NCBI GenBank assembly: GCA_026713605.1
Contig: JAPOOC010000004.1
Location: 1-53,831, forward strand
From: Candidatus Kaiserbacteria bacterium
GTDB taxonomy: Bacteria > Patescibacteriota > Minisyncoccia > Phycocordibacterales > JABAAK01
Direction of reading: 5' to 3'
Length of the DNA: 53,831 bases
The notes under the pieces are model-generated. The model was not told the DNA's origin and did no database searches. It was given only the letters and a program-made list of their open reading frames with translations. A program made the position numbers and the translations under genes. This document shows, in pieces, positions 793-32,346 of this stretch (position 1 is its first letter; each line of letters opens with the position of its first letter).

Positions 793-1075
793 ATGGTATA
801 TAGTATATAACAAAAGCACACTTTTTGTGTTTGTCCATAGCAGATTACCCTGAATTGCAATAAGTTCAGTATACACCCGCAATACCAATGCGTAGGTAAT
901 GACATTGCCTCAATGGTTAGGCGGGGAAATTGGATAAACACCCAAAACAGATGGAGTGAGAATCTAATCGCTCGCAAGGTACTGTGGTACACTATAGATA
1001 GAAGCGTGCAACTAGCGAAAGGTACAATGGTAACGCCATGAGCTGTATTGATTGAAAACAAAAGGAGGAACAAAA

Positions 1076-2404
1076 ATGAAAACTATCTTGACGGTACTTT
1101 TCACATCCATATTCGTGTCCGCCGCACTAGCACACACAGACCCCATCACATCCATTGGCTTGAGGGTGCTTGAAGACCACGGAGTACAGAAGAGAGTGGT
1201 TGACGGAGAGACGACAGAGTTGGATTGGCATACCCTCTCATACACTGCCGTAGGGACAAGTGAGGAGACCGAGTTCTCTACGCCGCGACAAACAAGCGGA
1301 CATTGGCATCCTGAGAAAACGAACAAGAGAGTATATCAACACACTGATACCCATGCGCATAGTGAGGTAAACCATGCGCATGACAACTATGTGAGTCACA
1401 CGCATCCAGGCGTTGACGGATACCCACATTTTCATTCGGAAAGTTGGAAGGAGCATTATCACCACGATCATGCTGGTGTTGAAATTAAAATAGAAGTTGC
1501 CGATCCTGTCGTGGGCAAGGTGGAAAATGACCCTGCGGTAAAGATTGGACTCGGCACAATAGCACCGCCGGGGCAGGTCCCCAGCCCTGACACACGACCA
1601 AGCGCTGAAACGCCACCTACACCGACAACAGAGACAGCGCCACAGCCGACGGGAACAGCAGCCGAGGACACTTCAACGACAATCGTTCAGTCAGCAGTGG
1701 ACACACAACCGACAGGAAGGGTGCAACCCACAGCGGAAACGCCGACAGCAGGTGCGACACCACAGCAGGGACCACATCCTACGGAGCAAAGCGAGCCACC
1801 AACTCCTGAACCTCAAAGTCCTCTAATAGTGACAGAGTACATGGTTCGGGATTGGTCGATGTTCGGCGGGGGCGGCCAACCACAGTGGGTGGAGGTATAT
1901 AATCCAAATGACACCCCGGTAAACCTTGACGGGTATGTATTTCAATATGCAGCTCGCAAGTTTATCAATCACCCGGTTAAGATCATGAGCGTTGCAATCG
2001 GTGAAGGGGAAATAGAGGGTTACGGCACTGCGATTTTTGCTACCAGCAAGATCAGATTCACAAAATACAGACAAGCGGGCATCAGTGAATCTCAGGTATA
2101 TGCACTGCAGATGCCCAATGTCTTGAAAAGAGGGTGGTGTATCAAAGATGCACAAGGAGAGATCGTTCACGCGATAGGAGAAGCGTTCGACTCTTTGTAT
2201 AGACCTGTCGCGCCACTACATCAAGAGGGTGGCAAGCGAGTATCCCATCATGTGGTACAAAGCGAACCGCCTGCAGATGACTACTATTACGGTAGTCGGG
2301 TTGACATCGGACACCCTGGATTTCACGAACCCATGGTCCCGAAAGCACCCACCGCACCCAAAGTCAAAAAGATTTTGACATGGGGGTCGCTTAAAAAGAG
2401 GTGA
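1076..2404 (+). CDS. secreted protein: signal peptide, His-rich region, Pro/Thr linker, lamin-tail-like domain, C-terminal TWGxLK motif
   Basis: SD AAAGGAGG at 1061; signal peptide ending ALA; LIVTEYM...PQWVEVYNP..VNLDGY resembles a lamin-tail domain; ends KILTWGSLKKR. Confidence 0.8.
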   Translation: MKTILTVLFTSIFVSAALAHTDPITSIGLRVLEDHGVQKRVVDGETTELDWHTLSYTAVGTSEETEFSTPRQTSGHWHPEKTNKRVYQHTDTHAHSEVNHAHDNYVSHTHPGVDGYPHFHSESWKEHYHHDHAGVEIKIEVADPVVGKVENDPAVKIGLGTIAPPGQVPSPDTRPSAETPPTPTTETAPQPTGTAAEDTSTTIVQSAVDTQPTGRVQPTAETPTAGATPQQGPHPTEQSEPPTPEPQSPLIVTEYMVRDWSMFGGGGQPQWVEVYNPNDTPVNLDGYVFQYAARKFINHPVKIMSVAIGEGEIEGYGTAIFATSKIRFTKYRQAGISESQVYALQMPNVLKRGWCIKDAQGEIVHAIGEAFDSLYRPVAPLHQEGGKRVSHHVVQSEPPADDYYYGSRVDIGHPGFHEPMVPKAPTAPKVKKILTWGSLKKR

Positions 2405-2475
2405 AGCATTCCCCCATCTTTGCACGCATCGGCGACAGTCGGTGAGTCGCAATCGTTTCTTTTCAATTAACACAA

Positions 2476-2507
2476 GGGCGCAACGCATGTTGCGCCCACT
2501 TTTATTT
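2476..2507 (+). terminator. intrinsic terminator hairpin
   Basis: GGGCGCAAC-GCAT-GTTGCGCCC followed by ACTTTATTT, between convergent genes. Confidence 0.65.
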
Positions 2508-2531
2508 CCTCTGCTGTACAACAAATCTTTA

Positions 2532-3947
2532 CTATGTACCCCTCTTTTTCACCACCGTACTGATACCATTAGCATCTATAACTTCATAGCCGAGTTCGTT
2601 AATACGAGTACGAAGTGCATCAGCGGTTGAATAATCCTTGTCGGCGCGAGCGGTATTGCGCTGAACGAGGAGATCTTGAACCTCCGGCGGGATTATCACC
2701 TGCTTACCCCTCTGCTTCGGGCGACAGAGAATGCCGAGTACACGATCCGCATAGCGGAGCGTGTTTCTTTTGCTAATAGGGGTAAGGGAAGTGTCACGGA
2801 GGATAGCATGTACCGTTGCCAGCACCTTTGCAGTGTTAAGGTCATCCGCAATAGCGGCATCAACTGCCGCACAATGCGCCGCATTGCGTTCAACATTGAG
2901 ATACGAAAGGAGGGAGTGGGGAAGGGCAGCGTACTCCTTGTGCAGACGAAACAGCGCCGTTTGGGCAGAATCAAGCGCTGCAAAAGAAAATGAGAGAGGA
3001 GTACGATACGATGCTTGCAGGAAGAGGTAGCGAAGAGCAAGTGGGTGGTACTCACGCTGCTCAAGGTCGTCAATAGTGTAAGTATTGCCAAGTGATTTTG
3101 ACAACTTCTCGCTACCCATAGTGAGAAAGGCGACATGCATCCAAAGGTTTGCAAACACAGTATCAGACGCACCTTCACTCTGAGCGATTTCATTATTGTG
3201 ATGCACGGCAATGTGATCCATACCACCGGTGTGGATGTCAATAGTCGTGCCGAGCAGTTTCATCGCCATCGCAGAACACTCTATATGCCAGCCAGGAAAG
3301 CCACGACCCCAAGGCGAATCCCATTCCTGCTGGCGAGTCACCCCGTCTGGCGTCCGCTTCCAAAGAGCAAAATCATGCGGGTGTTTTTTGCCGGCAACGC
3401 GCTGTATGCGCGCATGCTCATCACTTTCTTCAGTGTTCGGCAATCCGAGCGCACCGTAGGGTTTGTACGCCTGCGTGTCAAAGTAGATACCATCCGCAAT
3501 GTCATAGGTATATCCTTTTTGTTCCAACTGCTGTGTCAGCGCTATTTGCTCCTGGATATAGTGCGTGGCACGAGGAAAGCGATAACGGTTTGTTTTGATA
3601 TTCAATTTTTTTAAGTCAGCGAGAAAGAGGTCGCCAAAGCGGGCAGTGATTGCTTCTGCCGCCTGGTTTTCCTGCGCCGCCTGCTTCTCCACCTTATCTT
3701 CACCAGCGTCAGCATCATCAGTGAGATGCCCGACATCAGTAAAGTTGATAACATGGTTTGGGGAGTAACCAAAATGGCGCAACGCACGATGTAAAGTATC
3801 AGCAAACACATACGCGCGCATGTTGCCAATGTGTGCCGCTTGGTAGAGGGTTGGTCCGCAAGAATAAATACACACTTGTCGCCCGACGAGCGGAGTGAGC
3901 GGACGCAATGTTTTGGTTTGAGTGTCGTAGAGTTCAATAAGACGCAT
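2532..3947 (-). CDS. cysS: cysteine--tRNA ligase
   Basis: YSCGPT, HIGN, DFALWK, PWGRGFPGWHIECSAM, KLSKS motifs; start taken at MRLIELYDT. Confidence 0.97.
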   Translation of the reverse strand: MRLIELYDTQTKTLRPLTPLVGRQVCIYSCGPTLYQAAHIGNMRAYVFADTLHRALRHFGYSPNHVINFTDVGHLTDDADAGEDKVEKQAAQENQAAEAITARFGDLFLADLKKLNIKTNRYRFPRATHYIQEQIALTQQLEQKGYTYDIADGIYFDTQAYKPYGALGLPNTEESDEHARIQRVAGKKHPHDFALWKRTPDGVTRQQEWDSPWGRGFPGWHIECSAMAMKLLGTTIDIHTGGMDHIAVHHNNEIAQSEGASDTVFANLWMHVAFLTMGSEKLSKSLGNTYTIDDLEQREYHPLALRYLFLQASYRTPLSFSFAALDSAQTALFRLHKEYAALPHSLLSYLNVERNAAHCAAVDAAIADDLNTAKVLATVHAILRDTSLTPISKRNTLRYADRVLGILCRPKQRGKQVIIPPEVQDLLVQRNTARADKDYSTADALRTRINELGYEVIDANGISTVVKKRGT

Positions 3948-4003
3948 ACAAAATGTGGACTGAGTAGTATACTTAGTATGCCATAATGCTATACTTAATA
4001 TAT

Positions 4004-5807: not shown

Positions 5808-5836
5808 TTGCTTTTTTTGCTATTTTATGGTATTAT
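5808..5836 (+). promoter_or_regulatory. sigma70-type promoter
   Basis: TTGCTT-17nt-TATTAT with extended TG, followed by leader stem ATTTGTAATG/CATTACAAAT. Confidence 0.55.
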
Positions 5837-5968
5837 ATCATTAAGTATAATTTGTAATGGAATGGGGTTTGTGCATATCCCCCGCTTTGAACATTACAAA
5901 TCATCAAAAAACTTTGCCCTCAAAGAGGGCACTACCATGGCAAGCGAGTGCAAAGACCGCTCACACCC

Positions 5969-6238
5969 ATGGTGACTTCCGCCCTCCATCAGGAGGAAGT
6001 GGTCGCCAAGAGCGGCGACCTAGTCGCCATCGGAAGGCCAGCACAGAACGAAGTGCAGGTCTTCCGCCGCCGCAAGTCGGAAGAAGGAGGGCTAACCCTC
6101 CTTGAAACGATAAACCCCACCGACCAAAATACTCGGGGCTTCGGCTCCGAGGTCTCGTTGGTTTATGCCAGCGAGGGCTGGTGGGTAACGATCTACTCTC
6201 TGACGGGAGAGGCCCTCTCTAAGAGGGTCGAGGAGTAG
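5969..6238 (+). CDS. small protein resembling a single FG-GAP repeat blade
   Basis: GDLVAIGRP...VQVF...LLETINP.D...GFGSEVSL pattern; C-ending codons; own promoter and terminator. Start uncertain. Confidence 0.6.
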   Translation: MVTSALHQEEVVAKSGDLVAIGRPAQNEVQVFRRRKSEEGGLTLLETINPTDQNTRGFGSEVSLVYASEGWWVTIYSLTGEALSKRVEE

Positions 6239-6240
6239 AC

Positions 6241-6278
6241 AAAAAAGCCGTGTGCTGTACAGCACACGGCTTATTTTC
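6241..6278 (+). terminator. intrinsic terminator
   Basis: AAGCCGTGTGCTG-TA-CAGCACACGGCTT-ATTTT. Confidence 0.75.
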
Positions 6279-11511: not shown

Positions 11512-12111
11512 CTACTCATTTTCACGCTCACGCTTGAAATACTCACTCGAAATCCGTTGTTTGAGTTCAAATAGAAGGTGGGAAAAAATCGAATCTGAAT
11601 TATCTCCGTGAGGATCTGAAGGTCCTTCAGACAAAGTTCCTGCTTCAGCTTTTTCATAGGAGGAGTCATGCAGTTCGTTAGCAAGTTGTACATCATCCCA
11701 GGAAACATCGGAGAAATCAACATCTTCAAAATGGTCTGACAGAATCTGTGCCCGCTCATTATCGTTCCTATTCTTTGCGTAATAATACTCTCTCGTTCTT
11801 TCTTCTAGCTCCTGATATCCTTCGGGATATTTCCCCATCCGTGAAGAATCCTCTTGCATGTTGTAATAAAGAGTCAAATCTTCTCTTGAAGGTCTATCGT
11901 CTTCCCACAAGCCCTCATTCTTGTACGCACTGATAATCTCATCTAGCTTAAACTTTTCTCCCATTCTTTTTAAGCCGCTCTCAGTTCTTTCAAGCTCTTT
12001 TTCTTTTTCTTTAATTATTTGGGATAATTCTTTTCTCCTCTCTGCCATTAATTGATCAATTTCATTCCCCCCCCCTCTTTTTTCAATTTTTTTATTCTCA
12101 TTAAATTTCAT
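11512..12111 (-). CDS. hypothetical charged protein, AT-rich
   Basis: 199-aa ORF, E/K-rich and coiled-coil-like; composition differs from core genes. Confidence 0.7.
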   Translation of the reverse strand: MKFNENKKIEKRGGGNEIDQLMAERRKELSQIIKEKEKELERTESGLKRMGEKFKLDEIISAYKNEGLWEDDRPSREDLTLYYNMQEDSSRMGKYPEGYQELEERTREYYYAKNRNDNERAQILSDHFEDVDFSDVSWDDVQLANELHDSSYEKAEAGTLSEGPSDPHGDNSDSIFSHLLFELKQRISSEYFKRERENE

Positions 12112-12295
12112 ACTATATATAATTTCAACTTAATAATTATATAAATAGTATGCCATACCAAACGAGAAGTTACAGGAAGTTACAGTTTGGATTACCATGA
12201 AGTGCAATAATCACTAAAATTAGAATTTATTAACCACAACTTAGTACTTCAAGCGAGTCAACATCTTGTGTATTGTGAGAAATGCAGATACATCA

Positions 12296-12574
12296 CTACT
12301 TTGTGTCAATAGTCGCCATAGTACGATTCTTCGCCTTACCAGTAAAGTTTGTTTTCCGACGCGTGATAAACCGAACGACACCATCCTGCAGAGCAAACAG
12401 CGTGTGATCTTTACCAACACCGATACCTTTACCAGCAAGAATACGCAACCCCCGCTGCCGAACCAACACCTCACCAGTACGCACCTGCTGACCATCACCC
12501 CGCTTAATGCCGAGAAACTTGGGCTTTGAATCGCGTAAACTTTTTGCGGAACCTCCCGCTTTCCTATGTGCCAT
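12296..12574 (-). CDS. rpmA: 50S ribosomal protein L27
   Basis: MAHRKAGGS...[11 protein letters not shown]...LVRQRG...[11 protein letters not shown]. Confidence 0.97.
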
Positions 12575-12595
12575 AATGCTATCAGTATACAGCAT

Positions 12596-12913
12596 ATGAA
12601 AGATTTTTACAACGAATGGTATGTGATAATAGTAGTCGTATTAGTAGGAATAGGCATGTTCATGCTCGGCGGACTATTCGTACACTCACTATACAAACCA
12701 GCAAAAGCCACAGCAGACATACACCTCAAACCACTGGCAGTTGAACAACAAAACACCAACATGCGACGAGTGTACGCCTCAAAACAAGGCAAACGCTACT
12801 ACCCCTGGTGGTGCGACGCAGGCAACACCATCGCCAAAGAAAACAAAGTGTGGTACAACACCCCAGAAAAAGCAAAAAAAGAAGGATACACCATCGCAAA
12901 AGGATGCCAGTAG
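12596..12913 (+). CDS. membrane-anchored protein with Ada-like metal-binding C-terminal domain
   Basis: N-terminal TM; [14 protein letters not shown]...IAKENKVWY...AKKEGY..AKGC is a common CPR family pattern. Confidence 0.75.
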
Positions 12914-12942
12914 CAAAATGAGATATACTAATACTGTAATCT

Positions 12943-13110
12943 ATGAAAGACATAACATTTCAGCACAAGGAGAACCGACTGCGCCCCGAAGTAGCCACAC
13001 GCATTGAAAAGGATAAAAAAGATTGGGAAGAAGGGCGAAGAGAAAATTTCTCAAAACCACTTACAGATACCGCAAAAATAGACACATGGCTTAATACACG
13101 AGCATCATAA
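12943..13110 (+). CDS. 55-aa ORF sharing its first 9 residues (MKDITFQHK) with ORF 16067
   Basis: Read directly from the sequence; below the ORF-track cutoff; TATACT box upstream. Confidence 0.4.
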   Translation: MKDITFQHKENRLRPEVATRIEKDKKDWEEGRRENFSKPLTDTAKIDTWLNTRAS

Positions 13111-13152
13111 GGGGGTGTTGCTTGCTAATGTTGTTGTGGCAGAATATCAACA

Positions 13153-13983
13153 ATGGCGTTACGAAAAAACAATGGAGGCGGCATTGCGTTAATATCTGGT
13201 GACAAAGCCCATAAAGTTCTCCGGTATATTGCCAAATATGACAATCAGAGTAAGAAGACATCATCTCTCATGATTTATCCTGTGAGGGGGAAAGAAGACA
13301 CCAATCCGTACATCCTCAGGAAAATTTGTTCGGGTAAGGTGGAGCGTGAGGAAGAATCAAGCGCAAGGGGTCTGAAAATAAACTTTCACACAAGCGGTGA
13401 ATATCATATATCTGGCGGTGGTTTTAATAAGGGCAAGGGTGGGGGTAATCCATATAAAGCGCAAATAGCGTATAAACCCAATGCTCCCGGCTACTACCTG
13501 TCCCTTGCAGCAATAACCGATCACACCCGATGTCCAATTATTACAAATTTGAGGCAGGAGAGGAATAAGAAGATAGATATTCTATTTGAAATGCCGCCAG
13601 GCGGGGACGGGTGTGTGTTCATTGTGTTTATACGATTGAACAAAGGCGATGGGTACACAATACAAGGAAACACTGACAGGGGTCCAGGAGGTAGTGTGAC
13701 ATTAGATCCTGAATTAAAGGAAAGAATATGGTGGTATGTTAATGGTTTTTGTGTGCGACTTGCCGGTGGAAGCGCCTTTACTCTTAACAAAGACGGAATA
13801 GTTCCACAAGTTCTCGCAGAGGACATCTCTTCGAACGGCTGCATCTACTTAGTTTTGTGTATACCAGCGATACGCAGGGATAGGAACTTAGTGAACAGCA
13901 GAACATTAAAAAATGCGGTGATAGCACAAGTAAGTGAAATGGGCAGAGAAGTCACCACCCCATCACTTGTGTTGTTGTGGTAG
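13153..13983 (+). CDS. hypothetical protein
   Basis: 276-aa ORF in the island; no motif recognised. Confidence 0.7.
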   Translation: MALRKNNGGGIALISGDKAHKVLRYIAKYDNQSKKTSSLMIYPVRGKEDTNPYILRKICSGKVEREEESSARGLKINFHTSGEYHISGGGFNKGKGGGNPYKAQIAYKPNAPGYYLSLAAITDHTRCPIITNLRQERNKKIDILFEMPPGGDGCVFIVFIRLNKGDGYTIQGNTDRGPGGSVTLDPELKERIWWYVNGFCVRLAGGSAFTLNKDGIVPQVLAEDISSNGCIYLVLCIPAIRRDRNLVNSRTLKNAVIAQVSEMGREVTTPSLVLLW

Positions 13984-18596: not shown

Positions 18597-18605
18597 ACTG
18601 TATTT

Positions 18606-19151: not shown

Positions 19152-19332
19152 ATTTTTAGGAATCTGTTATGCACCAAAAACCACTTTTAAATCATTGGCT
19201 GTTGTCAGATGGTTATATGATATAAGTGTTTGCTTGGAGTGTCAAGATGTTTTAGCAGAAATCCAATTCTGCTCATTAAGAAAATCAGTTTCCACACAAA
19301 AGCACTGGTACACTACTCTTAAGCAAAGATGT

Positions 19333-19596: not shown

Positions 19597-19720
19597 GAGA
19601 GCAGTGCGGATCCGTCAGAGTCAGTAGTGTGTTGTCAAGGGGGTTAGGGGTAACTTTTACACAACGGCGGGGATAAAAAAATCCTATGGAATATAGACAT
19701 TTTTTGTTTTTGTGCAAAAT

Positions 19721-21430: not shown

Positions 21431-21541
21431 TCAACATGCCACCGAAGGTGTTGACCTGCAGTATGTTGCCTGCCCTGCCGACAGGGTTAGTGGATAGCGA
21501 GTCGGTTGTATCAGTTTGCGGTATGGTATACTACAGACACT

Positions 21542-22060
21542 ATGTTAAAGATACGATTACAGCGCATCGGTCGGCGGAATAATCCGTCGTATCGGGTGGT
21601 AGTGGTGGAATCCACGGTAGCGGCGCGAAAAGGGAAGCCAGTTGAACTGTTGGGGACATACGACACAATACGAAAGACAACCTCATTGAACAATGAGCGG
21701 ATACAGCATTGGCTATCAGTCGGAGCGCAAGCATCAGACACGATGCACAACATTTTGATCAAGAATGGTGTAATAGAGGGAGTTGCCGTCAACACATTGC
21801 CGAAGAAGAGTCCAGTGAAAAAGAAAAAAGATGCAGCCGACGGCGCAGAAGCAGAGCAGAAAAGTGAAGCGCAGGCAAGTACAGGTGATGCTCCTAAGGA
21901 CACAGCAGAACCAGCAGAACCAGCGGGCGACACAAAGGATGAGGCGCCAAAGCAGGAGGTCAAGACAGCAGAACAAAGCAATACAGATGACACCGCTGAC
22001 ACCGATGCAGAAAAACCATCTTCACCCCCTCCACAAGACACTCCTTCTACGGAAGGATGA
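21542..22060 (+). CDS. rpsP: 30S ribosomal protein S16 with long low-complexity C-terminal tail
   Basis: MLKIRLQRIGRRNNPSYRVVV...ELLGTYD...WLSVGAQASDT. Confidence 0.96.
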   Translation: MLKIRLQRIGRRNNPSYRVVVVESTVAARKGKPVELLGTYDTIRKTTSLNNERIQHWLSVGAQASDTMHNILIKNGVIEGVAVNTLPKKSPVKKKKDAADGAEAEQKSEAQASTGDAPKDTAEPAEPAGDTKDEAPKQEVKTAEQSNTDDTADTDAEKPSSPPPQDTPSTEG

Positions 22061-23555: not shown

Positions 23556-23933
23556 ATGCGTATTGTTGGCGTAAATATACCTGAAAAAAAACATTTAAGA
23601 ATTGCGCTTACGGCGGTGTATGGCATCGGTCAATCCCGCGCGAAGAGTATTCTGGAAGAGTTATCTATAAACCCGACCAATACGGTGGGGGATTTGAATG
23701 CAGATCAAGAAACTGCTGTGCGTAAAAAGATTGAAGAATTTACCGTTGAGGGCGATTTGCGTCGATCATCTGCGCAGGATATCAAACGACTGAAAGACAT
23801 AAAAACCTTGCGTGGGTACCTACATGGTGTCGGATTGCCAGTTCGTGGACAACGGACAAAGACAAATGCGCGAACAAGAAAGGGGCCAAGAAAGACCATG
23901 GGATCAGGTCGAGTGAAGTTGCAGAAAAAGTAG
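23556..23933 (+). CDS. rpsM: 30S ribosomal protein S13
   Basis: RIVGVNIP...GLPVRGQRTKTNARTRKG. Confidence 0.98.
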   Translation: MRIVGVNIPEKKHLRIALTAVYGIGQSRAKSILEELSINPTNTVGDLNADQETAVRKKIEEFTVEGDLRRSSAQDIKRLKDIKTLRGYLHGVGLPVRGQRTKTNARTRKGPRKTMGSGRVKLQKK

Positions 23934-23934
23934 T

Positions 23935-24372
23935 ATGGGAAAAAAGCGAACAGCAAATAAAGTGGAGCAGAATAGGAGTGATTCTGGAAAGCGCACGAGG
24001 GTACTATCTAAGATTCCGAAAAAGAAGATCAGCAGAGGTGTTGTCTTTGTTGAGGCAACTTTTAATAATACCAAAGTACTCTTCACTGAGCCAGGCGGCA
24101 ATGTGGTGATGTGGGTAACCAGCAGCACGCTCGGCTTCAGCAGCGCAAAAAAAGCAACACCGTATGCGGCAGCAAAAGTTGCTGAAGCAATCGCTGAAAA
24201 GGCAATGGCAATAGGGGTGAAAGATATAGATATCATTGTAAAAGGAGTGGGAAGCGGAAGAGAGTCAGCACTCCGTTCATTTCTAAACCGAGGGTTTGTT
24301 GTACACTCCATTCGCGATAGGACGCCAGTGCCACATAACGGCCCAAGGCGCAAAAAGCCAAGGCGCGTGTAA
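23935..24372 (+). CDS. rpsK: 30S ribosomal protein S11
   Basis: ATFNNT...KKATPYAA...GSGRESALR...TPVPHNG. Confidence 0.98.
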   Translation: MGKKRTANKVEQNRSDSGKRTRVLSKIPKKKISRGVVFVEATFNNTKVLFTEPGGNVVMWVTSSTLGFSSAKKATPYAAAKVAEAIAEKAMAIGVKDIDIIVKGVGSGRESALRSFLNRGFVVHSIRDRTPVPHNGPRRKKPRRV

Positions 24373-24404
24373 CAAACACAACTGGGCGGGTATCATCACA
24401 GGGT

Positions 24405-25004
24405 ATGAAGAAAGTAAAAAAACATAAAATCAGCAGGCGACTGCAAGCACCACTGTTTGAAAATTGTCAAACACAGAAATTTGCTCTGCGTGAGCAACGG
24501 CGTGTTCCAAAGCGACGCAGAAGGTCGGCATCTGAGTATGGCAAGCAATTAGCCGAAAAACAGAAAATGCGCTACCTATACAGCGTCTCAGAGCGAGTAT
24601 TGAAAAACTATGTGAAAAAGGCGGTTGCGAACCAAAAAGCGTCAGCCGAGGAAGCACTCGCCGAGGTGGTAGAACGACGGTTGGACAATGTGGTGTACCA
24701 GCTCAATCTAGTGCCGACCAGGCGCATGGCGCGACAGCTCGTCTCCCACGGCCACTTTACGATAAATGGCAGGAAAACAACCGTCCCATCATACCAGGTG
24801 CGTGACACAGACACGGTCGGAATCCGGGAAGGGAGCACAAAAACAAAACTTTTTGAGGTGTTGCTTGCCGGAAACACAACGAAGTCACGCGTAGGGTGGG
24901 CTTCTTGGGATAGCAAGGCGCGCCAAGGCACGATCACCGGAAAACCAGTGATTGGCGAAACGGTATTTTCAATCCCGTCAATTCTTGAGTACTATTCCCG
25001 CTAA
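24405..25004 (+). CDS. rpsD: 30S ribosomal protein S4
   Basis: SEYGKQLAEKQK, ERRLDNVVY, ARQLVSHGH, EYYSR. Confidence 0.98.
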   Translation: MKKVKKHKISRRLQAPLFENCQTQKFALREQRRVPKRRRRSASEYGKQLAEKQKMRYLYSVSERVLKNYVKKAVANQKASAEEALAEVVERRLDNVVYQLNLVPTRRMARQLVSHGHFTINGRKTTVPSYQVRDTDTVGIREGSTKTKLFEVLLAGNTTKSRVGWASWDSKARQGTITGKPVIGETVFSIPSILEYYSR

Positions 25005-25028
25005 ATTACAAATAAACATTTTTATATT

Positions 25029-25976
25029 ATGACAGAGTATATTAACATCGCTATTCCCTCCAAGCCAGAGATAGTACAGGAAACAGACACAGAGGGAACA
25101 TATGAGATCTCAAGCTTATACCCCGGATACGGAAACACGCTCGGCAACGCCCTGCGAAGGATGCTACTGTCCTCAATACCGGGAGTGGCAATTACCACCA
25201 TACGCATACAGGGGGTGCCGCACGAGTTTTCAGCACTGGATGGGATCAAGCAGGACGCACTCACCGTTATCGTGAATATGAAAAATATTCGCGTCAAGGC
25301 GAATACAGACACCTTCCCACAACGAATAGCATTGAAGAAGAAAGGAAAAGGTGTTGTTACTGCCGGGGACTTTGAAGCGCCGTCGCAGGTTGAAGTGATA
25401 AATAAGGATTTAGTCATAGCGGAGATCGCTGACGACAAAACAGAGTTACAGATAGAGGCAGATATACAACAAGGCATCGGCTTTCGCCCTCGAGAAGATT
25501 TTTCTGACGATTCAGAGGTCGGGTCAATTGTCGTGGATGCGATATTCTCCCCAGTGAAGCGGTCGTCGTATGAAGTAGAAAATATGCGAGTCGGCGAGAG
25601 AACCGATTTTAACCGCCTCTCTCTATTTATTGAAACTGACGGAACCATCACGCCCCGTGAGGCACTGGAAAAGGCACTGCGCACTATGCTAACACAGTTT
25701 GAGGCAATGCTTGGCTTCCAGTCAGAAAATAAAGAAAAAATGAAAGAAATAGAGCAGGAAGCAAATGAAAACATGAAGGTGATTGCAATACAGGATTTGG
25801 ATCTGAGTGCCACCATTGTGAACGCACTAGAAAAAAACAATATACAAACCGTTATGGACTTGCTGAAAAAGGGAGCAGCCGGTATTCGGGAGATACCTGG
25901 CATCGGCACGAAAGCGGTTGAGGAGATCACCGAGCGCCTTGAAGGGCGAGGGATAATCCTGAAAGACGGAGAGTAA
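25029..25976 (+). CDS. rpoA: RNA polymerase alpha subunit
   Basis: PGYGNTLGNALRRMLLSSIPG, HEFS, VDAIFSPV. Confidence 0.98.
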   Translation: MTEYINIAIPSKPEIVQETDTEGTYEISSLYPGYGNTLGNALRRMLLSSIPGVAITTIRIQGVPHEFSALDGIKQDALTVIVNMKNIRVKANTDTFPQRIALKKKGKGVVTAGDFEAPSQVEVINKDLVIAEIADDKTELQIEADIQQGIGFRPREDFSDDSEVGSIVVDAIFSPVKRSSYEVENMRVGERTDFNRLSLFIETDGTITPREALEKALRTMLTQFEAMLGFQSENKEKMKEIEQEANENMKVIAIQDLDLSATIVNALEKNNIQTVMDLLKKGAAGIREIPGIGTKAVEEITERLEGRGIILKDGE

Positions 25977-25986
25977 CACAAACACC

Positions 25987-26340
25987 ATGGCATACCACAA
26001 AAGAGGGAGAAAATTTGGGAGAAAAAGAGATCAACGAAAGCAGCTGATGCGCTCTCTCGCGCGATCTGTTATACTACATATGCGGGTTCAAACCACAGAA
26101 GCACGCGCAAAAAGTATTCGCCCCTACCTTGAGAAAATTGTCACCAAGGCGGCAGTCAATGACTTGTCGACCAGGAGATTGCTATTGAGTCGTTTCAATA
26201 ATGACAAAATAGTGGTAAAAAAGTTACTTGAAGAGTTGGGGCCGAAATACAAAGAGCGAAACGGTGGGTACACCCGCATCACCAAGGTTGAATCTCGCCC
26301 GGGTTCGGGGCGGACAGTTGCGGTGATTGAGTTTGTATAA
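25987..26340 (+). CDS. rplQ: 50S ribosomal protein L17
   Basis: RKFGR...TTEARAK...YKERNGGYTRI. Confidence 0.97.
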   Translation: MAYHKRGRKFGRKRDQRKQLMRSLARSVILHMRVQTTEARAKSIRPYLEKIVTKAAVNDLSTRRLLLSRFNNDKIVVKKLLEELGPKYKERNGGYTRITKVESRPGSGRTVAVIEFV

Positions 26341-26348
26341 AAAGCAGT

Positions 26349-26708
26349 ATGGTAAACACACAAGAAAAAATAAGCATCAACGCAGCAGGGAAACGGCTCG
26401 GTTGTCTCGCATCTGAAATAGCGAATATGCTGAACGGTAAGCACACACCGGCATATGCGCCGAATAAAGCCCCCAATGTAGTGGTGGAGGTCTCCAATGC
26501 CGCACAGATGCAAATATCTGAAAAGAAAAAGGACAATAAAATATATGAGCGGTACACCGGATACTTTGGCGGGAGAAAAGAAATAACACTCGCGCAACTC
26601 ATAGAGAAGAAAGGGTATGGTGAAGCATTGCGCAAGGCAGTATATGGTATGTTGCCGGGCAATCGTTTGCGAAAAGTAAAGATGAAAAAATTACAGATTA
26701 ACGAATAA
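26349..26708 (+). CDS. rplM: 50S ribosomal protein L13
   Basis: LGCLASEIA..LNGKHTP...YTGYFGG...AVYGMLP. Confidence 0.96.
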   Translation: MVNTQEKISINAAGKRLGCLASEIANMLNGKHTPAYAPNKAPNVVVEVSNAAQMQISEKKKDNKIYERYTGYFGGRKEITLAQLIEKKGYGEALRKAVYGMLPGNRLRKVKMKKLQINE

Positions 26709-26712
26709 TAGT

Positions 26713-27126
26713 ATGTTAGAGAATCAAATAGAACGAGGGGGGTACATAGAAACCGTCGGACGGAGGAAAACCGCCGTCGCACGAGTACGCATTTCTAAGC
26801 TCGCAAGGGGGATCGTGGTAAACGGCAAGCCGATAGAGCAGTATCTGCCAACGCAGGAATTGGTCAAGACAGCAATGCAACCATTCCACGAAAAGGAGGC
26901 GTACAAAGAGTTCCTCGGGGCAACGGTGATCGTTAAAGGTGGCGGTTCATCAGCGCAAGCAGAGGCGATACGCCACGCACTGACCCGTGCATTTGTCGCG
27001 CATGAACCCACGGATAGAAAATTTTTCAAAGATTTAGGGTTTTTGACACGAGACCAGCGGAAGAAAGAACGGAAGAAGTTCGGCCTCAAAAAAGCCCGCC
27101 GCGCACCACAGTGGAGTAAGAGGTAG
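26713..27126 (+). CDS. rpsI: 30S ribosomal protein S9
   Basis: GRRKTAVARV...KERKKFGLKKARRAPQWSKR. Confidence 0.98.
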   Translation: MLENQIERGGYIETVGRRKTAVARVRISKLARGIVVNGKPIEQYLPTQELVKTAMQPFHEKEAYKEFLGATVIVKGGGSSAQAEAIRHALTRAFVAHEPTDRKFFKDLGFLTRDQRKKERKKFGLKKARRAPQWSKR

Positions 27127-27254
27127 CGGTCATATGTCTATCAGATCTCCAAAGATAGCAAATACCTTATACCACAAGAGGCTCCGCAACATTTTTTCCA
27201 AAGCATTAAAAAACCCTATAAAATCAAGACCTTCTCCCATAATCTAGCCATAAG

Positions 27255-27339
27255 GCAAAAATATAGAACACCAAACACTCTATTCGTTTCATTTTAATGA
27301 AAACGAAATCATCTTGTGTTTGGTGTTCTATATTTTTGC
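27255..27339. repeat. perfect 24-bp inverted repeat enclosing a 37-nt spacer
   Basis: GCAAAAATATAGAACACCAAACAC (27255-27278) / GTGTTTGGTGTTCTATATTTTTGC (27316-27339). Confidence 0.92.
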
Positions 27340-27351
27340 AAGGAGAAAAAA

Positions 27352-27792
27352 ATGGCAGCAAAAGTGAAACACCTACACAACTCCCAGCTCCGAGGGTTAG
27401 CGGGCGGCACTAGCCGCATCGCTAAAGATGCGGCACGGGAATTGGCGCGCCGCGCGGAGCAGCGCGAACAAATTCGAAAAGAGGCAAACTGCCGTGGACA
27501 TGTTTGGACACGCCACATGCGCCCCGCATATCCCGGTATGCGGGGTATAGAGGTGCAGGGAAGCCGTGTGCGGTGCGAGTCCTGCGACACGCATAGAAAC
27601 CTGCACATCGGGTGCTGCGACGACCCGCGGATAGAGGAAATCGTCCCGGAAGGGGACGATTTTCTCTGCTCCTGCAGGAGCTGCGGAGAGATTAGCATTG
27701 CCACTCTCTCCAAGAGAGAAATGAGACCTGCGTCCAGGAAAAGGTGGCACTCAACAACGAGGACCTATCAGCGCAGGGATAGGCACTCGTAA
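27352..27792 (+). CDS. small basic Cys/His-rich (putative Zn-binding) protein
   Basis: SD AAGGAG at 27340; CRGH, CESC, CC and CSCRSC motifs; GC-rich. Confidence 0.7.
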   Translation: MAAKVKHLHNSQLRGLAGGTSRIAKDAARELARRAEQREQIRKEANCRGHVWTRHMRPAYPGMRGIEVQGSRVRCESCDTHRNLHIGCCDDPRIEEIVPEGDDFLCSCRSCGEISIATLSKREMRPASRKRWHSTTRTYQRRDRHS

Positions 27793-27824
27793 AAAAAAGG
27801 CCGTGAGGATTGGCCTTAAACCTC

Positions 27825-27857
27825 AAACCCACAGTTGAAAAAAACTGTGGGTTTTTT
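27825..27857 (+). terminator. intrinsic terminator
   Basis: AAACCCACAGTT-loop-AACTGTGGGTTT-TTT between convergent genes. Confidence 0.75.
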
Positions 27858-28561: not shown

Positions 28562-29665
28562 TTACTGCAGACGAAAAAGGTTTTTGAAGAAATTAGCGAT
28601 CTTCTTGAAAAGGTTGGTGAAAAAGTTTCCGGAGGTACTTTCGCCACCATCTTTCCCGTCTTGATCGTTCCGGATAATCTCTCCATTATTCCCTGCGTCA
28701 GAGTTAGATCCTGTTGCAACTGTGTTCTTCGGTGTTACACAATCTGTAACGGTAATCTTACCAAGTGCATTAGGTGTAATGCTGTTGATAAGGTTTCTTG
28801 TTTGCGCGTCTACCACCCCGGTGACCGGGATATGGTACGCTGACTGAAAACGCTCCAACGCTGCAAGTGTTCGCGGACCGAAATATGAAGTTTCCTGTCC
28901 GGGTGAACCTGCGCCAATTGTTGCAAGCGTGAAGCCGTTTCGGTTCAGAAACTGTTGTAAGTTCTTAACCGTTGGACCACACGAATCACAACCAAAGTCG
29001 TCAGTGGTGTTTCCTGTCAGTGCTGCGATTTGCTGTTGTAACACAGCAACTTGCCTTTGGAGATCAGCAATGTTTCGCATAATCGTGTCCTGTTTTCTGG
29101 TGGCATGCCTTTTGTCAGTTTGTACCGCTGTAACAACACGAGTGGTGTCAACAGGGTGTCCGACAAAGACAACCTCCAAATCCGGCGTGAGGTACGAAGT
29201 CACCTTCGTAACAACCGCATCAGAGGTTGATGGGTACCCAGAGAAGACGGTCTCCAAGTCAGGAGCAGAGTAGTGTACTTTGCTCGTAACTGGAAAACGC
29301 AACTCCGACCGAACCATAAAGGTTTCTGATGCAGGTACTTCCGCAACATATACCACAGCTTCTGAAGAAGTAGGCAGGTTGCGTACAACCTGGCTTGACT
29401 CCTTCGCAGCAACAGTAGTGTGTGGATGACCCACAAAAACAACCTCTGCGTCAGGGATAGTAAGAGAGACATGCTGCACGACAGTAGTCGGTGCAGGAGT
29501 GTTCTCAAATACGGTCTCTAAGCTCGGAGCAGTGTAAGAAACACTGCGTGCAACCGGGAAAAACAGTTCTGATTGTGCGAATACTTTACTACCCACCAAA
29601 GGGGTAGCAACACAAACAATAACCGCTACGATAATCAGTAACGAGTTTTTACACGCGTTACTCAT
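28562..29665 (-). CDS. secreted protein with internal repeats, coiled coil and peptidoglycan-binding domain
   Basis: Signal peptide (VFA); VKNLQQFLN..GF...GAGSPGQETSYFGPRT..A..RFQ...TG.VD..TR PG-binding domain; amphipathic C-terminus. Confidence 0.85.
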   Translation of the reverse strand: MSNACKNSLLIIVAVIVCVATPLVGSKVFAQSELFFPVARSVSYTAPSLETVFENTPAPTTVVQHVSLTIPDAEVVFVGHPHTTVAAKESSQVVRNLPTSSEAVVYVAEVPASETFMVRSELRFPVTSKVHYSAPDLETVFSGYPSTSDAVVTKVTSYLTPDLEVVFVGHPVDTTRVVTAVQTDKRHATRKQDTIMRNIADLQRQVAVLQQQIAALTGNTTDDFGCDSCGPTVKNLQQFLNRNGFTLATIGAGSPGQETSYFGPRTLAALERFQSAYHIPVTGVVDAQTRNLINSITPNALGKITVTDCVTPKNTVATGSNSDAGNNGEIIRNDQDGKDGGESTSGNFFTNLFKKIANFFKNLFRLQ

Positions 29666-29898
29666 AATATAGTTAGTTAGATTAATAATAGGTGAAAGAG
29701 CGCAAAAAGAACGGTACAAGGGTCAGCAGAAAGAGGTATGGTGTGTACTGCTTTCTGGCATAAACTACCTTTATTTTGCCATATTTTACCAAAATAGGCA
29801 AGTTGACAAAATAGAGAAATATAGCATAAAAGATAGCAAAAAAAGCAATAAAATAAAGGTTTTTTGCAATACATCGGGTAATAAGCAATAGCATATAT

Positions 29899-29927
29899 TT
29901 GACAATAAAGCAATTATTATATATAAT
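29899..29927 (+). promoter_or_regulatory. perfect consensus sigma70 promoter
   Basis: TTGACA-17nt-TATAAT, followed by a 14-bp leader inverted repeat 29951-29964/30003-30016. Confidence 0.8.
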
Positions 29928-30084
29928 TATAGCAATGTAAGTCGTGTTTTATGGTGTGTGGTTCGTTGGTCTATTACAATAATTGTTAAAGCTTAAAGCA
30001 GAGAACCACACACCATGGTTGGAAAAATCAAAAAAAATTGAAAAAAGACCTCCCGCGTTTGGGATAGGCAAAAAGGAGAAAGAA

Positions 30085-31416
30085 ATGAAAAGTTTAAAGG
30101 GAATTTTTATCGTTTTGATCGCCATCGTGGCGACCATAATTGTGGGTTGTGACAACATGTCCAACCCGGTCTCACCCTCACCAGCAACCCCCACAACAAT
30201 GGGGGAACTGAAACAGGCAGCCACAACTCGCGCCGGCGGAATCAGCGCCGAAGGAGTTGAGGTTGTCAGCGGCGGCTCCGCCGCCGCCCCCAGCATCGTC
30301 AAGCAGATCGATGCTGAAGGCACACTCACCGTTTCTCTGTCTCACATTGAGACAGAAGAAGATGGCGACGAAATCATCGCCATCACCGCAAAAAGCGGAC
30401 AATTTGTCGGAAACGACAAATTCCGCTTCTACGCGGGTGGACGGTACCTCGGTAGGGTCACCCTGCCAGAGGACGCGGTCCTCATAGAGCTGCACATCCG
30501 CATGGATGATGCAGATCTCGGAACCGGGGAGAGCAACATTGAGGTCGAGGTCTCCCGCAACGGCAGAATCATCGCCGACGCGGAACTCGCCCTTGACCGG
30601 GCAATCCCCGGCCCTCGTCTTGAAGAAGCCAGAATCGGCGAATTCGCCGATGAGGTCGTCCTCGTATTCTCCGAAGATGTTGACGCTTTCCACGCCATCA
30701 AGGACAACCTCCGGGTTGTCAATGGCAGTGGCGAGGTGTTACAGATTCGGAGTTTCGGCGAAAACGCAGATGAGATCACACTCATCATGCGAAAAGATCT
30801 CAGCGTCGGCGAGTACACCATCACCTACAGCGGTGAAGGTGGACTTGAGTCGCTAAGTGGCGAACCTCTTCGCCAGTTCTCAACCACGCTGGTGGTTGGG
30901 GACGGAGATGCGGCTGACGAAGAGCCAACCGAAGACACGGCCGTATGGAAGACCATCCCCCACGGGCTATATAGCTCAGGGGATCAATTCCTGGTCGCCC
31001 TTGACGCCTTCGGCTACCTCCCGAGCAATTGGACTCGGGAGATCCTTGGAACGATCATGTTCCAAGTCCAGAGTGAGGTCGGCACCACCGACCTCTACCG
31101 CGTAACCGCGGCAGATCTCGGACTGAACGCGCCTTACTCGGCGAAGGATATTATCCTCGCTGTGGCAGGCGCCGGGTACCAACTGGTGCCAAGCGAGACG
31201 GCAGCGCAGCTCCGCCTCCTCATGCCGGAGCAGCCAGTAGGGGAAACCTTGCTGGTCGTGTCCGGCCCGCTGAACCGCCCCGGGCAAACGAGCAAATATA
31301 TGCTCGCCCTCGGCGGCGGCAACGCGGAACACCCCGGCAAACACCTGTTTGCCGTGGGTGTTGAAGAAACCCTGAACTCCGGGGAGTACCCGGAGTTCAT
31401 CGTGACCAAACAATAA
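30085..31416 (+). CDS. putative lipoprotein with Ig-like domain(s) and conserved C-terminal domain (paralog 1)
   Basis: SD AAGGAG; lipobox-like IVG-C; Big_5/SwmB-like segment VVLVFSEDVD...YTITYS; C-terminus homologous to 31634-32299. Confidence 0.8.
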   Translation: MKSLKGIFIVLIAIVATIIVGCDNMSNPVSPSPATPTTMGELKQAATTRAGGISAEGVEVVSGGSAAAPSIVKQIDAEGTLTVSLSHIETEEDGDEIIAITAKSGQFVGNDKFRFYAGGRYLGRVTLPEDAVLIELHIRMDDADLGTGESNIEVEVSRNGRIIADAELALDRAIPGPRLEEARIGEFADEVVLVFSEDVDAFHAIKDNLRVVNGSGEVLQIRSFGENADEITLIMRKDLSVGEYTITYSGEGGLESLSGEPLRQFSTTLVVGDGDAADEEPTEDTAVWKTIPHGLYSSGDQFLVALDAFGYLPSNWTREILGTIMFQVQSEVGTTDLYRVTAADLGLNAPYSAKDIILAVAGAGYQLVPSETAAQLRLLMPEQPVGETLLVVSGPLNRPGQTSKYMLALGGGNAEHPGKHLFAVGVEETLNSGEYPEFIVTKQ

Positions 31417-31429
31417 CTTGTTCTTTTTG

Positions 31430-31455
31430 AGGCGCGCCTTACGGCGCGCCTTTTT
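31430..31455 (+). terminator. intrinsic terminator
   Basis: AGGCGCGCC-TTAC-GGCGCGCCT-TTTT. Confidence 0.85.
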
Positions 31456-31519
31456 CTATGCAGAAAAAACCACACGAAAACCACCAAGTACTGGCTTTCC
31501 TACACTATTACCTAAATAT

Positions 31520-31548
31520 TGGACAAATCAAGGGTTTTCGTGTATAAT
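31520..31548 (+). promoter_or_regulatory. sigma70-type promoter
   Basis: TGGACA-17nt-TATAAT, followed by leader hairpin GTGTGTAGT/ACTACACAC. Confidence 0.7.
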
Positions 31549-31633
31549 TAAAGCAAATGGTGTGTAGTGTAATTGTTCGTTAACAAAGACGAAAACTACA
31601 CACTACCAACTTAAGGAAAAAAGGAGAACTGAA

Positions 31634-32299
31634 ATGAGAAAAATTTTTCTCATGGTAGCCATGACCTTGGTTGCCATCACAATTGGCTGCGGCGACGCAG
31701 TCAACCCCGTCGCAGAAAGCGACGAAGACCCTCGCTGGATCCAAGAAGAGGGTGCCCATACTTTCAGTGTGGACACCGAAACCACGACCACGATCCGGGG
31801 CGGCACATGGATGACCGTCCCCCACGGGCTCCTTGACTCTGGCGATGACCACATGAACGCCCTCATCAATGAGGGCTTCAGAGTGGATCACCAAGGCGAG
31901 AGAATTTTTGGAACAATCATGTTCCAAACGGCCAAGGAAGAGGGTGAAACAACCCTCGGGCGTGTGAAAATCGCCGACCTGTTCCCAGAAGGGACAGGGT
32001 CGGTAACGCCGCAGGAGATCTACGACGCCGTCCGGCGAAGTGAGATCTTCGAGCCAGCACTGCCGGAGACGGCAGCACAAGTCCGGAGGCTGTACACCAA
32101 CCAACCGGCAGGGGAAACCTTGCTGGTGGTGTCCCACCGCATGAATGCGGTGAAGAGTGAAGAGAAGTGGCAATTCGCTCTTTACAACAGCGGTACTGGC
32201 GACGAGCCAGTACAGGGGCTTCGGTCAATCCAGATGTCCGAAAAGCTGGACTCGGACATCGTTGAAGTTGTCGTTGCCGTCAAAAGCAGCGACGAGTAG
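31634..32299 (+). CDS. putative lipoprotein (paralog 2)
   Basis: SD AAGGAG; TIG-C lipobox-like motif; shares W.T.PHGL..SGD, I.GTIMFQ, ETAAQ.R.L...QP.GETLLVVS with paralog 1. Confidence 0.8.
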   Translation: MRKIFLMVAMTLVAITIGCGDAVNPVAESDEDPRWIQEEGAHTFSVDTETTTTIRGGTWMTVPHGLLDSGDDHMNALINEGFRVDHQGERIFGTIMFQTAKEEGETTLGRVKIADLFPEGTGSVTPQEIYDAVRRSEIFEPALPETAAQVRRLYTNQPAGETLLVVSHRMNAVKSEEKWQFALYNSGTGDEPVQGLRSIQMSEKLDSDIVEVVVAVKSSDE

Positions 32300-32318
32300 G
32301 TAGTTTGAACTCTTTAAC

Positions 32319-32346
32319 GGCGCGCCTTATACGGCGCGCCATTTTT
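32319..32346 (+). terminator. intrinsic terminator (near copy of 31430)
   Basis: GGCGCGCC-TTATAC-GGCGCGCC-ATTTTT. Confidence 0.8.

Follow-up and report, generated by a model that had tools for sequence, protein, structure and literature searches.

The window analysed here is the whole of a 53,831-nucleotide contig (JAPOOC010000004.1, contig C3 of the genome) from Candidatus Kaiserbacteria. The genome (GCA_026713605.1, G000 below) comprises 594,491 bases in 11 contigs, is 92% complete and belongs to the Paceibacterota of the candidate phyla radiation (CPR). Its genes carry one of two sets of start signals: a promoter −10 box or a single T close to the ATG in the great majority, and a canonical Shine-Dalgarno (SD) sequence in a minority of 48, exemplified in the window by stand-alone genes. 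The two sets are mutually exclusive, the SD set is linked to a class of exported proteins, and the SD core is retained among diverged orthologs. In our judgement these signals probably reflect two separate modes of start-codon selection, a leaderless or U-AUG default and an SD-led minority, in a cell whose 16S rRNA lacks the anti-SD. Five stand-alone genes of the window, designated g1–g5 (ATG at 1076, 5969, 27352, 30085 and 31634), are examined in detail.

Genes were called with our own procedure, in which a codon log-odds model and an iterative start model gave 548 genes plus 123 gap open reading frames (ORFs). Start choices and the signal-peptide and lipobox heuristics were likewise home-made, the lipobox being recognized by a regular expression and hydrophobicity with no trained predictor. 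For the genome-wide comparison, 585 genes were divided into 48 SD-led genes (AGGAG or GGAGG 4–10 nt before the ATG), 255 with a −10 box at leaderless spacing, and 282 others. Two congeners (G007 and G008) and a distant member of the order with 37% GC (G058) served as comparison genomes; the relatives compared are not independent of each other, and the test for selection on the SD rests on one congener, G007. Contigs from four DNA runs span core and accessory genes without differences. The accessory modules are therefore not assembly chimeras.

The principal default signal is an extended −10 box 6–9 nt before the ATG, found in 255 of the 585 genes. Hexamers matching TANNNT ended 6, 7, 8 and 9 nt before the start in 81, 63, 77 and 55 of 546 genes, compared with 7–27 genes for any single spacer between 10 and 30 nt. 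With its TG extension (TGNTANNNT), the box occurred 24, 25, 21 and 22 times at spacers 6–9 (92 in total) versus 66 times over 27 other spacers. Since the start model could itself favour −10 sites, we added a test independent of gene calls, ranking non-coding 5-mers by how often an ATG opening at least 80 codons lay 4–10 nt downstream (background 2.4%). The top five 5-mers were all pieces of a −10 box (ATACT, 120/680, followed by TATAC, GTATA, TACTG and TACTA). This signal was replicated in G007 (ATACT, 107/871) and G058 (TATAA, 102/940), and the box was kept at a spacer of 5–9 nt in 165 of 200 G007 orthologs.

The original prediction had described core genes with a TAnnnT box shortly before the ATG and no SD, and eight examples in the window bear this description out together with the genome-wide spacing peak. 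On the forward strand, rpsP (21524–21544) has TGgTATACT 9 nt before its ATG at 21542 and no SD. In the region 35559–36670, also forward, TGgTATACT stands 9 nt before the ATG of trpS (35577) and TATAGT 8 nt before that of grpE (36668). The spacing is 8 nt for the gene at 46008 (TGaTATAGT), 6 nt for fic (TGaTATACT), 10 nt for rpsB (TGcTACTAT), 6 nt for ctpA (TAGTAT) and 8 nt for ftsI at 48598 (CATACT).

The second component of the default signal is a T immediately before the ATG. This T(−1) was present in 194 of the 255 leaderless genes and 206 of the 282 others, or about 75% overall, and in 226 of 309 cases where the ORF offers no earlier start codon. Closely spaced operon-internal genes, with gaps of at most 30 nt, carried it in 87 of 110 cases, and it must therefore reflect more than a preference at transcription starts. 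The initiator tRNA can pair through its A37 with a U that precedes the AUG. The operon-internal genes rpsM, rpsK, rpsD, rpoA, rplQ, rplM and rpsI of the window (23556–27126, forward strand) lack both a −10 box and an SD upstream of the ATG, and six of the seven carry T(−1), rplQ having C instead.

Whether the 16S rRNA keeps an anti-SD, a question raised alongside the original prediction, is answered by its absence. The 3′ end reads GGAAUAAUUCAAAU where the bacterial consensus has GGAUCACCUCCUUU in the cmscan alignment, and does not end in ..CACCUCCUU; CCTCC occurs nowhere in the 16S gene of this genome. The comparison covered the 16S loci of 29 further genomes, each from a different family of the order. 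Three truncated loci lacked the helix-45 anchor, and none of the 27 tails with the anchor (26 other genomes plus G000) contained CCTCC; the G007 tail is the same as that of G000. Searches of the genome found neither of the ribosomal proteins uL1 and bS21, and showed that it encodes a protein of 380 aa with four S1 domains. Loss of the anti-SD in part of the Parcubacteria is already known: a subgroup overlapping the uL1-less group has no anti-SD motif in its 16S rRNA, and the available portion of that report states that SD helices presumably do not form and does not contain the word 'leaderless' (Tsurumaki et al. 2022, RNA 28:1041; PMC9297842). Our literature search on SD, anti-SD and leaderless initiation in CPR, Patescibacteria and Parcubacteria returned only this paper and unrelated mentions.

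A canonical SD is nevertheless enriched before a minority of starts. In the call-free test GGAGG (35/302, p=3e-14) ranked sixth and AGGAG (34/327, p=1.5e-12) ninth, with GAGGA and AAGGA lower; in G007, AGGAG ranked fifth (38/346, p=2e-17). The consensus among the 48 SD-led genes is AAGGAGG (A at −1 in 34/48, A at −2 in 27/48, G after GGAG in 35/48). T(−1) occurs in only ten of these genes (Fisher p=2e-13), and none has a −10 box at leaderless spacing compared with 255 of the 537 others, a contrast that is partly by construction. More than 100 nt lies upstream of 29 of the 48. Terminator-like sites within 90 nt after the stop follow 22 SD-led genes versus 49 of the 537 others (p=8e-10), and signal-peptide-like N-termini are encoded by 27 versus 129 (odds ratio 4.1, p=9e-6). 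The proposed class of genes combining promoter, long leader, SD and terminator thus proved statistically robust across the genome and tied to exported proteins.

The link to protein class is strongest for lipobox-type signal peptides. Twelve of 15 proteins with such a signal are SD-led, compared with 36 of the 570 others (odds ratio 59, p=9e-12), and the three exceptions resemble membrane proteins. When we scanned independently of ORF calls, an SD preceded 13 of 15 lipobox proteins in G000, with g4 now included, and 14 of 23 in G007, where several of the candidates lacking an SD look like non-genes. Searches for the two enzymes of lipoprotein maturation, Lgt (PF01790) and LspA (PF01252), found neither in any of six genomes (G000 and five single-contig relatives), and the same searches were positive in 10 of 14 control genomes. 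A search of the literature on lipoprotein processing in CPR found nothing relevant.

The SD motif looks selected and not a relic, as judged from comparison of diverged orthologs. Among 19 SD-led genes whose G007 ortholog has an aligned N-terminus (protein identity 27–83%), the SD was kept as a 5-mer in nine and as a 4-mer in 14; by the same measure, a 5-mer was found in 2 of 200 and a 4-mer in 5 of 177 G007 orthologs of non-SD genes. The flanking leader, from −70 to −17, diverged almost to random, with a median identity of 0.61 to the G007 orthologs versus 0.55 for random pairs. These observations bear on the possibility that SD-led units are cassettes acquired horizontally from SD-using bacteria, with the SD and the lipobox as non-functional relics and expression provided by the universal promoter alone. 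An SD in a cell with no anti-SD, and a lipobox in one with no Lgt or LspA, are the expected look of imported genes. SD-led genes are also poorly conserved, with a G007 ortholog with aligned N-terminus for 20 of 48 compared with 205 of 255 leaderless genes; Pfam matches cover 8 of 47 SD-led proteins versus 39 of 55 window proteins; neither G007 nor G058 has g1, g2, g3 or g5; the composition of four window genes is deviant; and the class is small in G058. Retention of the SD core between leader flanks that diverged almost to random speaks against import, as does the lipobox, which is kept in orthologs of 27–56% identity. In addition, since the anti-SD is missing across the order, genus-wide orthologs have long resided in cells that have none. 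Forty SD-led genes are of ordinary, native composition (third-position GC content, GC3, 0.48 vs 0.46) and so are not fresh imports. Finally, the donor search was negative, no near-identical donors of the kind that the original prediction had named as its refutation were found for g1–g5, and no integrase or transposase adjoins these five genes or is among the window's Pfam matches. Nor do the five genes look like a recent horizontal island: deviant composition is confined to g2–g5, homologs are not close (best 51%), and mobility genes are lacking. We consider import unlikely as an explanation of the class, and favour two start modes under selection.

The original prediction had also pointed to C-ending codons, which are visible in g2–g5 but not in g1. 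GC3 and third-position C (C3) are 0.62–0.73 and 0.32–0.44 in g2–g5, with the highest GC3, 0.73, in g2, and an ordinary 0.48 and 0.22 in g1. The high-GC3, high-C3 class holds only 13 genes in the genome, four of which are g2–g5. Its third-position C/(C+T) ratio is 0.725, compared with 0.51 and 0.25 in two sets of ribosomal-protein genes and 0.405 genome-wide. GC is raised at all three codon positions in this class, which indicates a compositional effect and not codon adaptation. The suggestion that such genes are the most highly expressed found no support, as the C-ending bias is not common to ribosomal-protein genes, is limited to 13 genes and is not seen in the forty SD-led genes of ordinary composition. 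Nor is high GC3 a trait of the family, since it is only 0.45 in the G007 ortholog of g4 and 0.54 in that of G008, neither of which is rich relative to its own genome. Most likely, to judge from base composition, the high GC3 of g2–g5 is a local effect of allele import or recombination among higher-GC relatives, separate from the expression grammar. Two further compositional features were noted. Third-codon composition is strongly strand-dependent (A3 0.31 and T3 0.20 in forward-strand genes of the window; 0.18 and 0.355 in the ribosomal cluster of contig C6, 31–41.5 kb), and simple codon-bias comparisons between contigs are therefore confounded. A low-GC stretch of the window (12000–19700; 0.34–0.42 vs ~0.48 around) contains an Eco57I-type methyltransferase (16772–18076) and several ORFs with no Pfam match, and looks like an AT-rich accessory island.

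The five window genes stand among ordinary core genes. Pfam searches of the window identified cysS, ctpA, frr, mreB, two penicillin-binding proteins, mraZ-rsmH, rpsP-khpA-trmD, infA, the run from rpsM to rpsI with rpoA, rpsB-tsf, trpS, grpE, rpoBC, dnaG and fic; among g1–g5 the sole match was a weak one, to a lamin-tail domain in g1. All five genes have their own terminator-like hairpin and T-run after the stop, and four carry an SD with a spacer of 6–7 nt (AAGGAGG in g1, AAGGAG in g3, g4 and g5), as had been predicted; g2 has none. Three products (g1, g4 and g5) have export signals by our heuristic, again as predicted, those of g4 and g5 being of the lipobox type. An Rfam scan of the window gave only two tRNAs above the gathering score and, at E≤1, no ribozyme or riboswitch in any leader.

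All five units lie on the forward strand. The g1 unit (985–2497) begins with an extended −10 box, TGgTACACT (985–993), and continues with a leader of ~76 nt, AAGGAGG at 1062–1068, the ORF (1076–2404) and a terminator at 2476–2497. The 442-aa product has a Sec-type signal peptide and the weak lamin-tail-domain match; its only homologs are four remote proteins (39–46% identity), none of them in G007 or G058. The g2 unit (5828–6272) has a −10 box TGgTATTAT (5828–5836), a weak 5′ hairpin (5850–5903) and a GC hairpin, GCCCUC/GAGGGC (5915–5931). A 12-codon upstream ORF (uORF; ATG 5937, stop 5973–5975) overlaps the main ATG at 5969 in the string ATGGTGA. The main ORF (5969–6238; terminator 6245–6272) encodes 89 aa with no signal peptide and ~1.5 FG-GAP-like repeat units. 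The product is 30% identical to the window's FG-GAP protein (46008–48560) and matches proteins of 1,000–2,300 aa in multiple stretches at up to 38% identity; it has the look of a fragment detached from a large surface protein and spanning roughly one and a half repeats of the FG-GAP type.

The g3 unit (27195–27854) has a weak promoter-like site (27195–27224) and a 21-bp perfect hairpin (27258–27336) followed by U-rich sequence; this hairpin, with its U-run, may double as the terminator of the rpsI operon. AAGGAG at 27340–27345 precedes an ORF (27352–27792; terminator 27825–27854) for a 146-aa, Arg/Cys-rich protein with CxxC pairs and no signal peptide. The homolog search returned only the protein itself, and g3 is absent between rpsI and the peptidoglycan-binding (PG-binding) gene in G007 and G008. 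The 3′ arm and SD of its leader resemble two leaders on contig C4 (L085:2850–3040 and L084:6193–6383, both reverse strand, at ~62.9 and ~46.2 kb). These two leaders of ~190 nt are nearly identical to each other and each ends in a hairpin and ATATTCCCTAAGGAGGGAAAAATG, while the downstream ORFs share no similarity; one promoter-leader module thus drives different coding sequences.

The g4 unit (29899–31452) has a consensus promoter, TTGACA-17-TATAAT (29899–29927; 12/12 match), a 5′ hairpin at 29949–30018 (AUGGUGUGUGGUUC / GAACCACACACCAU), and AAGGAG at 30073–30078. Its ORF (30085–31416; terminator 31429–31452) encodes a 443-aa lipobox protein (IVGC) with an Ig-like beta-sandwich region and a conserved C-terminal domain; a fold search returned only generic Ig/FN3-like beta-sandwich matches with low TM-scores. 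The best relatives are syntenic orthologs in two congeners (51% and 34% identity). All three orthologs occupy the same place, in the order rplM-rpsI, PG-binding gene, g4, rpsB-tsf, and share the promoter and AAGGAG; the G007 copy lacks the hairpin, and the rest of the leader differs. The divergent PG-binding gene (28562–29719, reverse strand) itself has a long SD-less leader in which a stretch (29720–29800) is conserved in G007 and G008; a hairpin loop in it carries ACACACCAU, the complement of ATGGTGTGT, the sequence that opens the g4 leader. The g5 unit (31520–32340) has a promoter TGGACA-17-TATAAT (31520–31548), AAGGAG at 31621–31626 and an ORF (31634–32299; terminator 32319–32340) for a 221-aa lipobox protein (TIGC), a paralog of the g4 C-terminal domain with 39% identity to g4 residues 285–433. 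It has no other homolog and is absent in G007 and G008. The g4 and g5 terminators share the stem GGCGCGCC..GGCGCGCC; together with the common leader start and C-terminal domain, this identifies g5 as the product of a partial duplication of the entire g4 unit.

Stem-loops at the head of the leader, which the original prediction ascribed to all five genes, were recovered for three. Relative to 200 shuffles, leader folds had z scores of −9.9 (g3), −5.5 (g4) and −3.7 (g5), with no shuffle as good in any case; g2 was weak (z=−1.45, 15/200) and g1 had none (z=+0.72). Nor is the hairpin class-wide: the best 70-nt upstream fold was −17.2 kcal/mol for SD-led and −16.3 for leaderless genes (p=0.63), a comparison confounded by upstream terminators. 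We therefore assign the hairpin to a family of leaders and not to the grammar. That family is marked by ATGGTGTGT, which opens the g4 and g5 leaders, as had been noted, and also those at C9:42181 and C10:97710. The G008 ortholog of g4 folds alike (z=−5.2), and differences in both arms keep the pairing, as read off single folds. For the four ATGGTGTGT-type leaders, the 3′ arms could not be aligned with MAFFT and RNAalifold gave no consensus pairs. The motif TTCGTT does occur in the g3, g4 and g5 leaders, but is replaced by another sequence in the G008 ortholog, and we treat it as unsupported as a conserved element.

From the predicted transcript start, the hairpin lies ~4 nt away in g5 and ~17 nt in g4. 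Two RNase J paralogs are encoded in tandem (G000:C10:71129–74713, reverse strand; L110 and L111; 459 and 343 bits to TIGR00649), and given these a role of the hairpins in protecting the 5′ end is reasonable as a model. For g3–g5 the 5′/3′ protection originally proposed is plausible; it does not extend to the class.

Some of these leaders also contain an AUG placed as if for a leaderless start. In g5 such an AUG (31557) lies 8 nt behind TATAAT and opens an ORF of eight codons; these supply the 5′ arm of the hairpin at 31558–31605. At C9:42181 the AUG of the same ATGGTGTGTGG start lies 7 nt behind the −10 box and opens five codons; in the G008 leader, which begins with the related ATGGCGTGT, an AUG in ATGGCGTGTG lies 10 nt behind and opens 30. 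All three distances are leaderless spacings. Ribosomes might therefore load on a mini-ORF at the leader's 5′ end and reach the main AUG by re-initiation or scanning, with AAGGAGG marking the restart. The g2 uORF that ends across the main start would fit such a route, and leaderless-configured short uORFs precede 13 of 35 SD-led genes versus 20 of 121 and 27 of 136 in two control classes (47/257 together; hand-calculated chi-square ~6.7, p ~0.01). This enrichment is modest and was tested post hoc, and the remaining 22 of the 35 have no such uORF. The gap from uORF stop to main AUG is long (~50 nt in g5, ~95 nt in g4), the g4 leader AUG is 24 nt from its −10 box, and the mini-peptides are not conserved beyond the stem-forming bases. 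Re-initiation appears to us rather improbable as a general route to the SD-led AUGs.

If the SD-like element acts directly, it needs a reader other than the canonical 16S tail, and we searched for one. There is no relocated CCUCC in the 16S rRNA, and no conserved non-tRNA, non-rRNA CCUCC element was found among the intergenic sites inspected, which comprised four rRNA/tRNA sites and three with no small-RNA layout. Pairing of a start motif with the new 16S tail was rejected, as none of the 30 5-mers most strongly linked to starts was complementary to it. There was no clear signal for an SD that extends towards GGAGGTGA (T after GGAGG in just 14/48), and CsrA, a candidate reader of GGA motifs, was not found in the genome. 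A general switch through sequestration of the SD by an anti-SD in cis was likewise rejected: none of 35 SD leaders contains CCTCC, compared with 18 of 257 controls, CTCC is found in 6 of 35 versus 50 of 257, and SD accessibility does not differ.

A different use of the motif would be as a recognition or measuring site for a cut near the AUG that leaves the mature mRNA leaderless. This would suit a ribosome that appears specialized for 5′-terminal AUGs, and both the tight spacing between motif and AUG (4–10 nt) and the two copies of RNase J are compatible with it. On the other hand, Rfam shows no ribozyme in the window even at E≤1, we identified no nuclease of such specificity, and a nuclease site would have no reason to match the canonical SD consensus exactly, as this motif does. 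We find leader cleavage highly improbable.

In the mechanism that we favour, two start modes would operate side by side. In the default mode, used by about nine genes in ten, a ribosome with no anti-SD tail would begin at transcripts that start at or a few bases from the AUG, as the extended −10 box 6–9 nt upstream implies; initiation inside operons would occur at U-AUG, in many cases closely coupled to the preceding gene. The minority mode (~48 genes, five of them in the window) would combine a sigma-70-type promoter, a leader of 50–150 nt, AAGGAGG 5–9 nt ahead of an AUG with no U at −1, and an intrinsic terminator of its own, and would serve lineage-specific exported proteins, including nearly all lipobox proteins. 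Where the leader is long, the SD-like element would flag the internal AUG to a ribosome with a preference for 5′-terminal or coupled AUGs. Its reader would not be the 16S tail but possibly the four-domain S1 protein or another component of the platform. The hairpins of g3–g5 may shield the 5′ end of leadered mRNAs from the two RNase J enzymes, and may bury 5′-proximal AUGs that would otherwise be taken as leaderless starts. A more specific version, in which a non-16S reader recognizes AAGGAGG as a second channel for stand-alone lipobox mRNAs whose products are matured with no Lgt or LspA, is one that we advance tentatively and regard as possible but doubtful.

Several observations weigh against this interpretation. 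The full SD 5-mer was retained in just 9 of 19 orthologs, and since an ortholog was detectable in G007 for only 20 of 48, the test for selection was confined to the better conserved members. The list of 48 contains chance members, as SD 5-mers or longer precede 3.1% of internal ATGs, and its rplV and rplP entries lose the motif in G007. In G058 the SD signal is weak (GGAGG, 11/188, p=6e-4) and only two lipobox candidates were found, so that the SD class may be genus-specific. The negative searches for a relocated CCUCC in the 16S rRNA and for a conserved CCUCC element elsewhere count on the same side, as do the lack of a hairpin in g1 and of any class-wide hairpin; in g4 the hairpin, ~17 nt from the predicted start, is far for a 5′-end protector. 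Finally, 'leaderless' and every leader length are predicted from promoter-like motifs.

The original prediction had suggested that these genes are tuned for translation or processing by a host bacterium's machinery. Two circumstantial facts favour this idea, both of them points that the original prediction had asked to check: the 16S has no anti-SD, and lgt and lspA were not found. The SD and the lipobox are thus left with no cognate reader in the genome and its five closed relatives, but would be read by a typical bacterium. No route by which DNA or RNA might be exported is known, nor any sign of one. The promoter type is the organism's own and is maintained within conserved synteny, and the SD-led list also includes cytoplasmic enzymes (adenylate kinase, OMP decarboxylase and a hydrolase). 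Moreover, lipobox proteins can exist in archaea with no Lgt or LspA homologs. We regard host-directed expression as extremely unlikely.

If a non-16S reader does recognize the SD and the lipobox proteins are matured with no Lgt or LspA, one lineage would hold both an undescribed mechanism of SD recognition and an undescribed lipoprotein pathway. The start signals of an anti-SD-less lineage, here leaderless starts plus a U-AUG context, were not described in the literature that we searched. They pose a paradox, namely a conserved, correctly spaced canonical SD on ~8% of genes with no known partner in the cell. As the SD-led class takes in almost all lipobox proteins, control of translation would be tied to the surface biology of these ultra-small symbiotic bacteria. 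In practical terms, a gene finder that expects an SD will place most starts wrongly in such genomes, and the variable surface proteome can be recognized through the two grammars with no information beyond the sequence.

These features can be compared with known systems. The genome resembles the anti-SD-less, uL1-less Parcubacteria in that its 16S tail has no CCUCC(U) and uL1 and bS21 were not found; the available portion of that report does not describe the start signals used or a minority of genes with a canonical SD (PMC9297842). The lipobox proteins resemble substrates of Lgt and LspA in their N-terminal basic region, hydrophobic core and [LVI][ASTVI][GAS]C lipobox, all kept in orthologs, but both enzymes were not found in the genome or in any of the five single-contig relatives. 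In Gram-positive bacteria, 5′ stabilizer stem-loops and 'Stab-SD' sequences (ompA leader, aprE, cryIIIA) protect mRNAs against the 5′-exonucleolytic RNase J, the Stab-SD by pairing with the 16S tail. The stable hairpins near the predicted 5′ ends of g3–g5, the SD-like tract that follows and the two RNase J genes recall this arrangement; here, by contrast, pairing with the 16S tail is impossible, the hairpin is not general to the class, and the 5′ ends are predicted only.

Two further parallels concern the coexistence of two start types. In Mycobacterium, Deinococcus and haloarchaea, the 'leaderless' class of GeneMarkS-2, a −10 box lies at a short fixed distance in many first genes and ATG predominates, and both features are shared by the present genome. 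Those leaderless-dominant prokaryotes keep the anti-SD and use the SD on leadered genes, whereas here the anti-SD is gone and U(−1) also marks operon-internal starts. In Bacteroidota, the anti-SD is present but sequestered and can be released; most genes have no SD and a few special genes have a strong one. The same division, with most genes lacking an SD and few carrying a strong one, is seen here in a lineage in which the anti-SD sequence itself has changed across the whole order.

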